A stretch of DNA of 6,857 bases, from IMG/VR virus record IMGVR_UViG_2529292836_000013. One strand, 5' to 3'. This document shows positions 3,247 to 3,347 of the stretch, piece after piece (the stretch's first letter is position 1; each line of letters begins with the position of its first letter). The notes below the pieces were generated by a model. That model saw only the letters and a program-made list of their open reading frames with translations. It had not been told where the DNA came from and ran no database searches. Origin of the DNA: a virus (Duplodnaviria > Heunggongvirae > Uroviricota > Caudoviricetes). The position numbers and the translations under genes were made by a program.

Positions 3247-3274
3247 TTGATTTTTCCGGAATCTGTGGTAAATT
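3247..3274 (+). promoter_or_regulatory. pR'-like late promoter (-35 TTGATT, 16-nt spacer, TGn-extended -10 TAAATT)
   Basis: TTGATT at 3247-3252; TG at 3266-3267; TAAATT at 3269-3274. TAAATT is the lambda pR' -10 hexamer as I recall it. Sits 6 nt after the Q stop. Confidence 0.5.
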
Positions 3275-3321
3275 CGTCATAACAATGGGCTTTTTATGCC
3301 TGACGTTAGAGGAGTTTCTAC

Positions 3322-3347
3322 AACCCGCCGCCGAGCGGGTTTTTTAT
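3322..3347 (+). terminator. tR'-like intrinsic terminator downstream of the late promoter
   Basis: aaCCCGC-cgccga-GCGGGtt followed by a T6 tract, about 50 nt downstream of the candidate -10. This is the arrangement expected for a Q-antiterminated pR'/tR' unit. Confidence 0.7.

Follow-up and report, generated by a model that had tools for sequence, protein, structure and literature searches.

A predicted Q-dependent late regulatory cassette of the lambda/P22 type in an Escherichia coli prophage

The closest described counterpart of the unit reported here is the PR′-qut-tR′ region of phage lambda. There, the -10-like hexamer AACGAT (+1 to +6) is re-bound by sigma70 to produce the +16 pause needed by the antiterminator Q, and is followed by a discriminator-like GGG at +7 to +9 (PMC4005639, PMC5001585). 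Lambda Q binds a 13-bp asymmetric site through its helix-turn-helix body and zinc-ribbon arm, as described in work that treats the Q cassette in general terms only (PMC9388147). Here we analyse a 6,857-nt stretch of DNA (IMG/VR virus record IMGVR_UViG_2529292836_000013; hereafter the window, meaning the whole stretch) and report that its positions 3247-3347, directly downstream of a Q gene, very probably form the late regulatory cassette of a lambda/P22-type (Q-lambda family) lambdoid prophage, a reading to which we assign a probability of about 0.88. In kind the unit is ordinary and of an already known type, a lambda/P22-like late switch newly recognised here; the specificity class formed by its Q and its putative Q-binding element (QBE) is uncharacterised.

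Compact and divergent versions of this layout are on record. In the record of Salmonella phage P22 (NC_002371.2), P late, a lambda-like qut and the RNA 5′ nucleotide are marked, as is t late at +31 to +59, and hairpins homologous to the one described below are annotated as terminators in Shigella phage SfV (U82619) and P22; the compact geometry is therefore already known. The qut sites of phages 82 and 21 share the logic of a QBE, a sigma-dependent pause and a terminator (PMC9388147, PMC5001585), but the phage 82 pause element lies 9 bp further downstream with a pause at +25 (PMC5001585), whereas the window element starts at the predicted +1, like that of lambda; Q21 binds a direct-repeat QBE as a dimer (PMC9388147). 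Because the three Q families are mutually unrelated, with no shared sequence similarity (PMC9388147), phages 82 and 21, which an earlier note on the window had proposed for alignment, are the wrong comparators, and the proper reference is lambda/P22. The same note had named Shiga toxin (Stx) phages, which we set aside too, taking the Q-family placement from PMC9388147.

Stx phages nevertheless resemble the predicted unit in that a constitutive late promoter is terminated just downstream in lysogens, giving a short RNA, and in that related ileZ/argN/argO-type tRNA genes follow; their short RNA, StxS, is processed from a longer precursor (PMC7547250). Among the matches listed, tRNA-annotated Stx-phage matches cover only the tRNA end of the query (146-201) and leave its promoter-terminator part uncovered, except in the Stx2a phage Stx2_EH1910; the Q of this phage, annotated as quuQ, is 91% identical to the window Q.

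Architecture of the cassette

What was observed directly comprises the sequence elements with their exact spacing and conservation, and also the family of the adjoining Q; the layout is as follows.

2420-3241, plus strand: Q antiterminator gene, 273 amino acids (aa), lambda-Q family (Pfam PF03589 Antiterm, E = 6e-55; RefSeq "antitermination protein")
3247-3252, plus strand: predicted PR′ -35, TTGATT, 4/6 matches; same position as TTGACT of lambda and P22; conserved in the clade
3253-3268, plus strand: spacer TTTCCGGAATCTGTGG, 16 nt, putative QBE, ending in the 3-nt TGn extension of the -10 (3266-3268)
3269-3274, plus strand: predicted PR′ -10, TAAATT, 4/6 matches; identical to the PR′ -10 of lambda and P22
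3281, plus strand: predicted transcription start (+1), seventh nucleotide after the -10; corresponds to lambda +1 (first A of AACGAT, PMC4005639) and to the annotated P22 "P late RNA 5′ nt"
3281-3289, plus strand: putative sigma70-dependent pause element AACAATGGG, composed of -10-like AACAAT (+1 to +6) and discriminator-like GGG (+7 to +9)
3296-3298, plus strand: predicted site of pausing (+16 to +18), placed by reference to +16/+17 in lambda (PMC4005639, PMC5001585)
3322-3348, plus strand: predicted intrinsic terminator tR′, with stem-loop 3322-3341 and U-tract 3340-3348 (T6, A, TT; TTTTTTATT)

The Q stop codon (TAA, 3239-3241) is followed by five bases and then by the -35, and CGTCAT fills the 6 nt between the -10 and the pause element. 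The earlier note had described a TGn-extended -10, which is present (T3266, G3267 and g3268 form a canonical TGn in front of TAAATT at 3269-3274), and an intrinsic terminator about 50 nt downstream, which proves to be a 7-bp GC-rich hairpin with a T6 run, its stem separated from the -10 by 47 nt. Its description of the promoter as near-consensus was overstated, as the two hexamers match at 4/6 + 4/6 = 8/12 positions. The whole Q-dependent cassette stands in canonical order directly after a lambda-family Q gene, which supports the Q-utilisation geometry that the note had recognised. The cassette also supports the Q assignment of 2420-3241, though Pfam and PDB matches already carry that assignment. 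The best evidence, the putative sigma70-dependent pause element AACAATGGG, had been overlooked.

The tR′ hairpin (AACCCGC-CGCCGA-GCGGGTT) pairs its GC core at 3324-3328 with 3335-3339, is followed by the T-run 3340-3345, was listed by the terminator scan and folds at -11.2 kcal/mol. It occupies +42 to +68, and the terminated RNA would be 65-68 nt long, ending at about 3345-3348. We considered a bidirectional terminator and rejected it, as the stem lacks an A-rich 5′ flank and no gene on the minus strand has its end at this point. Downstream of tR′, further terminator-like hairpins are found at 3937-3955, 4493-4514 and 5574-5602. A separate terminator-like hairpin, AACCCGCTTCGGCGGGTT, is found at 318-335, downstream of hokD, with the same stem arms as tR′ (AACCCGC / GCGGGTT).

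Comparison with lambda, P22 and SfV

The promoters and pause elements of the window and its reference phages compare as follows.

Lambda: -35 TTGACT, spacer 17 nt, -10 TAAATT, gap TGACTC, pause element AACGATGGG
P22: -35 TTGACT, spacer 17 nt, -10 TAAATT, gap TGACTC, pause element AACGATGGA
SfV: -35 TTGCAT, spacer 17 nt, -10 TAAGAT, gap TTTTCC, pause element AACGATGGG
Window: -35 TTGATT, spacer 16 nt, -10 TAAATT, gap CGTCAT, pause element AACAATGGG

Lambda and the window share the Q family, the -10, the 6-nt gap and a hexamer followed by GGG at +1 to +9, and both have a conserved element in the spacer between -35 and -10 and an intrinsic terminator ahead of the lysis genes. They differ in that the lambda spacer is 17 nt long (TATTGAATAAAATTGGG) and that of the window 16 nt (TTTCCGGAATCTGTGG), the two sequences being unrelated; in that the window has a canonical TGn, which lambda lacks; and in the 68-aa insertion of the window Q, which is absent from lambda Q. 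Work by Nickels et al. in 2002 reportedly described a -35-like TTGACT in lambda, one bp upstream of the pause element; this hexamer is visible next to the pause element in the lambda sequence and is lacking in the window. The terminators also differ in position, with lambda tR′ at about +194 (bioRxiv 10.1101/2024.10.31.621285) and the window terminator at +42 to +68.

P22 resembles the window in its compact geometry, in the same -10 and in the same 6-nt gap to AACGAT, but has a lambda-class spacer (TTTTGAATAAAGTTGGG), a short 207-aa Q (the gene 23 protein), a terminator that differs in sequence, and GGA rather than GGG behind the hexamer. The SfV/E. coli QuuQ-type cassette shares with the window a long-form Q with an extra Cys-rich segment. 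The SfV AACGATGGGC leader is 80% identical to window positions 3281-3345, and its predicted 5′ hairpin (see below) spans the same 27 nt, whereas its spacer class (TTTTCAAAAAATATGGA, 17 nt) and -10 (TAAGAT) differ and its Q is about 40-45% identical to that of the window.

Conservation across related loci

We collected about 385 loci encoding relatives of the window Q from IMG/VR and from one genome per species. A script found the -35/-10/pause-element arrangement in 349 of these, corresponding to 223 unique regions (Enterobacterales). The gap between -10 and pause element is 6 nt in 202/223 unique regions, the hexamer is AACGAT in 185/223, and the triplet after it is GGG in 178/223 and GGA in 33/223; A2 and T6 of the hexamer are invariant in an alignment of 97 distinct leaders. 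Even between clades whose Q proteins are only 30-58% identical, the -10, the 6-nt gap and the pause element are retained.

The promoter itself had not been listed by a generic promoter scan of the window, because its 8/12 matches fall below the threshold of 9/12 hexamer matches. We retained it because homology supports it: the unit is conserved in hundreds of related loci, and TAAATT is the commonest -10 (83/223).

An intrinsic terminator with its stem end within +100 occurs in 189/223 regions (median +58), compared with 22/223 control stretches inside Q. A stricter first terminator scan had yielded 76 distinct hairpin sequences: terminator structure is kept while its sequence turns over. The long-range tR′ of lambda escapes the terminator finder, and the +194 terminator is an exception in the family, for which the compact P22-like layout is typical, rather than the 194-nt 6S unit of lambda.

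In most relatives the same cassette has no tRNA gene inside about 1.1 kb, and the unit is therefore not a tRNA promoter. With this, the further terminator-like hairpins downstream of tR′ and the defective state of the prophage in view, dependence of the tRNA and lysis genes of the window on Q, which the earlier note had supposed, is a prediction.

A conserved spacer paired with a long-arm Q

Promoter spacers are normally not conserved. Among the survey loci, the spacer falls into three main classes and two minor ones, the main classes being:

Class W: TTTCC[CG]GAA[TA]CTGTG[GT], 16 nt; Q 50-100% identical to the window Q; 111 unique regions
Class S: TTTTCAAAAAATATGG[AT], 17 nt; SfV/QuuQ-type Q; 58 unique regions
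Class L: T[AT]TTGAATAAA[AG]TTGGG, 17 nt; lambda/P22-type Q; 45 unique regions

The W spacer is present in 111/111 unique loci whose Q is 50-100% identical to that of the window, and the association of spacer class with Q clade is without exception (W 111, S 58, L 45). The lambda QBE is said to have been located between -35 and -10 by Yarnell and Roberts in 1992, and a spacer that co-varies with the Q clade is as expected for a QBE in that position, which makes TTTCCGGAATCTGTGG the candidate QBE of the window.

The window Q belongs to the lambda family. In the PDB it is best matched by lambda Q (7ubm, E = 3.5e-40), over residues 1-113 and, separately, residues 182-273; the lambda Q structure 4mo1 also matches (E = 3e-27), and all PDB matches at E <= 0.01 are lambda Q structures. 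At the same cutoff Pfam gives only PF03589 and a sub-threshold DnaJ zinc-finger match, and in neither Pfam nor PDB at E <= 0.01 does the window Q match the Q82 or Q21 family. Residues 114-181 (window 2759-2962) have no counterpart in lambda Q; this 68-aa insertion contains two additional CxxC pairs. In an alignment with lambda and SfV Q, the insertion starts where the lambda Q zinc-ribbon arm (residues 114-152; PMC9388147) begins, and the extra segment of SfV Q falls at the same site. A long form, of 250-271 aa, is also seen in SfV Q and in the Qs of Dryocola (L088), Edwardsiella (L094) and Pectobacterium (L097); lambda and P22 Q are of the short 207-aa form.

The cassette defines an uncharacterised Q/QBE specificity class, a TTTCCSGAAWCTGTGK spacer with a long-arm Q. 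The pair might find use as an orthogonal antitermination switch, or as a naturally occurring test case for DNA reading by the Q-lambda arm.

Leader and terminator types are mixed within one Q clade, which fits specificity residing upstream of +1. In the L086-type Q/QBE clade, leader and terminator are either of the SfV-like long or of the P22-like short type (L313, L316, L319, L321 and L333 versus L086 and L311), and the leader module therefore appears to have been exchanged independently of Q and QBE, with a junction at or near the conserved AACGATGGG.

The pause element and its alleles

The pause element AACAATGGG begins exactly 6 nt after the -10 and matches the lambda AACGAT and GGG in position, with one base different; the G4-to-A change shifts the window hexamer towards the TATAAT consensus. 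Allowing two or fewer mismatches, TAAATT-N6-AACGATGGG occurs once in the window (3269-3289) against 0.02 expected. The general pause consensus is G-10/Y-1/G+1, and T17-G18 together with G8 fits it. A nascent elongating transcript sequencing (NET-seq) study of sigma70 pausing contains no prophage data (PMC7876045).

Allelic variation was read from 119 near-identical prophage copies with an identical promoter flank (loci L390-L508), in which the hexamer alleles are:

AACGAT, 63 copies; AATGAT, 24; AATAAT, 11; AACAAT (the window allele, a minority one), 9
AACTAT, 6 copies; AAAGAT, 5; GATGAT, 1

Hexamer positions 3 and 4 (window 3283-3284) and column +11 are the most polymorphic of the unit; positions 3 and 4 have three alleles each, with minor-allele shares of 34% and 22%, positions 2, 5 and 6 are fixed, and most changes go towards TATAAT. 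In -10 recognition by sigma70, positions 3 and 4 are weakly read, and the variation is as expected of a sequence read by sigma region 2. The alleles at positions 3 and 4 may reflect tuning of pause strength.

Proposed mechanism

By homology with lambda, we predict promoter activity, the start site, the pause, binding of Q to the spacer and antitermination. The sigma70 RNA polymerase would start at about 3281 from the TGn-extended promoter (TTGATT-16-TGgTAAATT). Sigma region 2 would then re-bind AACAAT and GGG (+1 to +9) on the non-template strand, giving a scrunched pause at about +16/+17 (3296-3297). Without Q, the polymerase would resume and terminate at +42 to +68, releasing a 65-68 nt RNA as the counterpart of lambda 6S RNA. 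With Q (2420-3241), Q would bind the putative QBE, the conserved TTTCCGGAATCTGTGG that separates -35 from -10, and load onto the paused complex, and the Q-loaded polymerase would read through tR′ and later terminators into the tRNAs, cargo and lysis genes.

A possible 5′-terminal RNA hairpin

The predicted leader RNA may hold one further element.

3281-3307, plus strand: predicted 5′-terminal RNA hairpin (hypothesis), pairing +1 to +3 with +25 to +27 and GGGC (+7 to +10) with GCCU (+18 to +21)

We propose, tentatively and with the balance leaning against it, that the late leader RNA of the Q-lambda family, lambda and P22 included, may begin with a selected 5′-terminal hairpin. In this reading the 5′ arm would be transcribed from the pause element (+1 to +5, AACGA), with the complementary 3′ arm at a variable distance (+16 to +33). 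If true, the DNA pause signal would double as an RNA structural element. The likeliest roles of such a hairpin are those of a 5′-end stabiliser, protecting both the short RNA and the long late mRNA against 5′-end-dependent decay, or of a terminator insulator against competing pairings.

Several observations favour this proposal. In nearly all leaders a (T)CGTT further downstream is complementary to the first 4-5 transcribed bases, AACGA. In leaders of lambda, P22 and the Enterobacter type this complement sits at +19 to +23, and in those of the window and SfV types it sits at +24 to +27. Of 111 leaders, 80 contain an exact complement of +1 to +4, against a shuffle mean of 13 and maximum of 23, and +1 to +4 are fully paired in the minimum free energy (MFE) folds of +1 to +34 in 77/111 unique leaders. 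After complete-linkage clustering, adopted as single linkage had merged nearly all leaders into one cluster, the complement is found in 15/19 leader types, against 12% expected. Compensated variants occur as well: AATGA/TCATT (L130, L307) beside the P22-type AACGA/TCGTT; AAGAATG/CATTCTT (L259, L266, L288); and a G:U pair in L100 that is A:U in L171, with A:U also in L217.

Other results count against the hairpin. In the long class, pairing reaches 93.9%, compared with 29-44% for slid partners, but column shuffles matched the double-sided covariation too often for significance (53/500), and the proposal therefore rests on cross-class evidence. Several alleles of the window clade, including AACAAT, break one pair without compensation, and the outer stem has only 4-5 bp. 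In the window, the G4-to-A allele weakens the stem, leaving an A:C mismatch at +4/+24 and an MFE of -5.5 kcal/mol, compared with -8.5 for the common AACGAT allele. 

A MAFFT alignment of the 97 leader types could not align the 3′ arms across loop-length classes, and a covariance model built from the long class was too class-specific, scoring short-class leaders near noise and giving no family-wide pair counts. No 5′ hairpin of PR′ transcripts was found in the searchable literature; mapping papers of the 1980s may already have remarked on a dyad symmetry of qut. The allelic series at hexamer positions 3 and 4 and the possible hairpin are leads on the tuning of pause strength and leader stability.

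Alternative explanations

One alternative, compatible with the Q switch, is that the main product is the 65-68 nt RNA itself: PR′ would be constitutive in the lysogen, and the RNA would be an Hfq-binding, trans-acting small RNA like StxS or lambda 6S, with a predicted layout of 5′ hairpin, single-stranded middle and terminator hairpin with U-tail. The PR′-tR′ unit of Stx phages gives rise to StxS, an Hfq-dependent small RNA (PMC7547250), and lysogens contain lambda 6S RNA, which has been recovered together with Hfq (bioRxiv 10.1101/2024.10.31.621285). The RNA predicted here would end in a terminator hairpin and U-tract, and the element persists in 731/5426 complete E. coli genomes (at least 80% of the window covered), often in degraded prophages. 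We nonetheless consider it unlikely. No Rfam family other than tRNA reaches threshold in the window, and the stretch linking the 5′ hairpin to the terminator (+28 to +41) lacks conservation from one leader type to another and so offers no obvious conserved seed; a small-RNA role would be extended to the predicted 66-nt RNA by analogy with StxS and lambda 6S.

Two further explanations set the Q switch aside. The hairpin might merely end the early (PR/Q) transcript, or belong to an attenuator/promoter unit for the two tRNA genes, with the promoter-like hexamers being fortuitous; the terminator does lie 81 nt past the Q stop codon and 37 nt ahead of a tRNA gene, and the generic scan did not call the promoter. 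Against this, the conservation of -10, 6-nt gap and pause element across Q clades sharing only 30-58% identity, the presence of the same unit in most relatives lacking a tRNA within about 1.1 kb and the expectation of 0.02 occurrences of the composite -10/pause motif per window make this explanation highly improbable. Slightly less probable still is a leader-peptide attenuator, in which translation of a short open reading frame (ORF) from the ATG in AACAATGGG (3285) would control the terminator, as in the trp leader. An ORF exists at 3285-3422, and an Rfam search at permissive E-values, which returned only tRNAs and sub-threshold matches, gave a weak Trp_leader match at 3242-3348 (24.3 bits, E = 0.016). 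That match is far under the gathering score of 41 and is attributed to resemblance of the terminator hairpin; the ORF runs through the terminator into the tRNA, an ATG at +5 leaves no room for a preceding Shine-Dalgarno sequence, and leaders read by eye do not conserve the ORF (lambda ATG GGT TAA, 2 codons; P22-type, 6 codons). We rejected the leader-peptide idea together with the Trp_leader match on the grounds that the ORF is not conserved and the match is sub-threshold.

We therefore return to the Q-dependent late cassette, against which several points weigh. The core promoter matches at 8/12 positions, has a 16-nt spacer and was missed by the generic promoter scan, and the TTGACT that stands beside the lambda pause element is not conserved (TCGTCA, 3/6). 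The Q DNA-binding arm contains a 68-aa zinc-ribbon-like insertion, and the details of loading may therefore differ. Finally, the prophage shows decay (its DUF968 gene is frameshifted and its endolysin is interrupted by an IS66-family element), so the switch may no longer matter biologically.

Prophage context and downstream genes

A prophage of E. coli NCCP 13717 matches the window with 100% identity, and at least 80% of the window is covered in 731 of the 5426 complete E. coli genomes. RefSeq gives the order hokD, frameshifted DUF968, rusA, antitermination protein, tRNA-Ile, tRNA-Arg, iraM (opposite strand), class II holin, ydfR and endolysin. The promoter, qut site and terminator are annotated neither in the RefSeq record nor in phage mEp460, and recognising them corrects how a prophage module that is very common in E. 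coli is annotated. The genes downstream of tR′ include:

3385-3460, plus strand: tRNA, anticodon CAT, first gene past tR′ (ARAGORN; Rfam, 72.5 bits; RefSeq tRNA-Ile)
3561-3635, plus strand: tRNA-Arg (TCT) (ARAGORN, Rfam, RefSeq)
5641-5856, plus strand: phage 21 S-type holin (Pfam PF04971, E = 3.7e-32; RefSeq class II holin, locus 8641-8856)

The holin is the first recognisable late (lysis) gene that the cassette would control. It is followed on the same strand by a ydfR-like gene and an endolysin remnant (6275-6595), which is truncated at about 6593 by an IS66-family element (ISCro1; 6593-6857), a sign of decay. A frameshift divides the DUF968 gene into ORFs 988-1632 and 1491-2036, and together with the IS66-cut endolysin this identifies the element as a degraded lambdoid prophage.

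Between the two tRNA genes lie 100 nt of non-tRNA sequence (3461-3560). A close relative (L014) has three tightly packed tRNAs (CAT, TCG, TCT), like the ileZ-argN-argO array of Stx phages, and the TCG tRNA is missing or replaced in the window and in mEp460. The late leader region also contains iraM, encoding an anti-adaptor protein, on the minus strand (4549-4884). The strongest hairpin of the window (4493-4514; 9 pairs, 7 of them GC) lies just past the 3′ end of iraM and would also face Q-modified polymerase coming from PR′.

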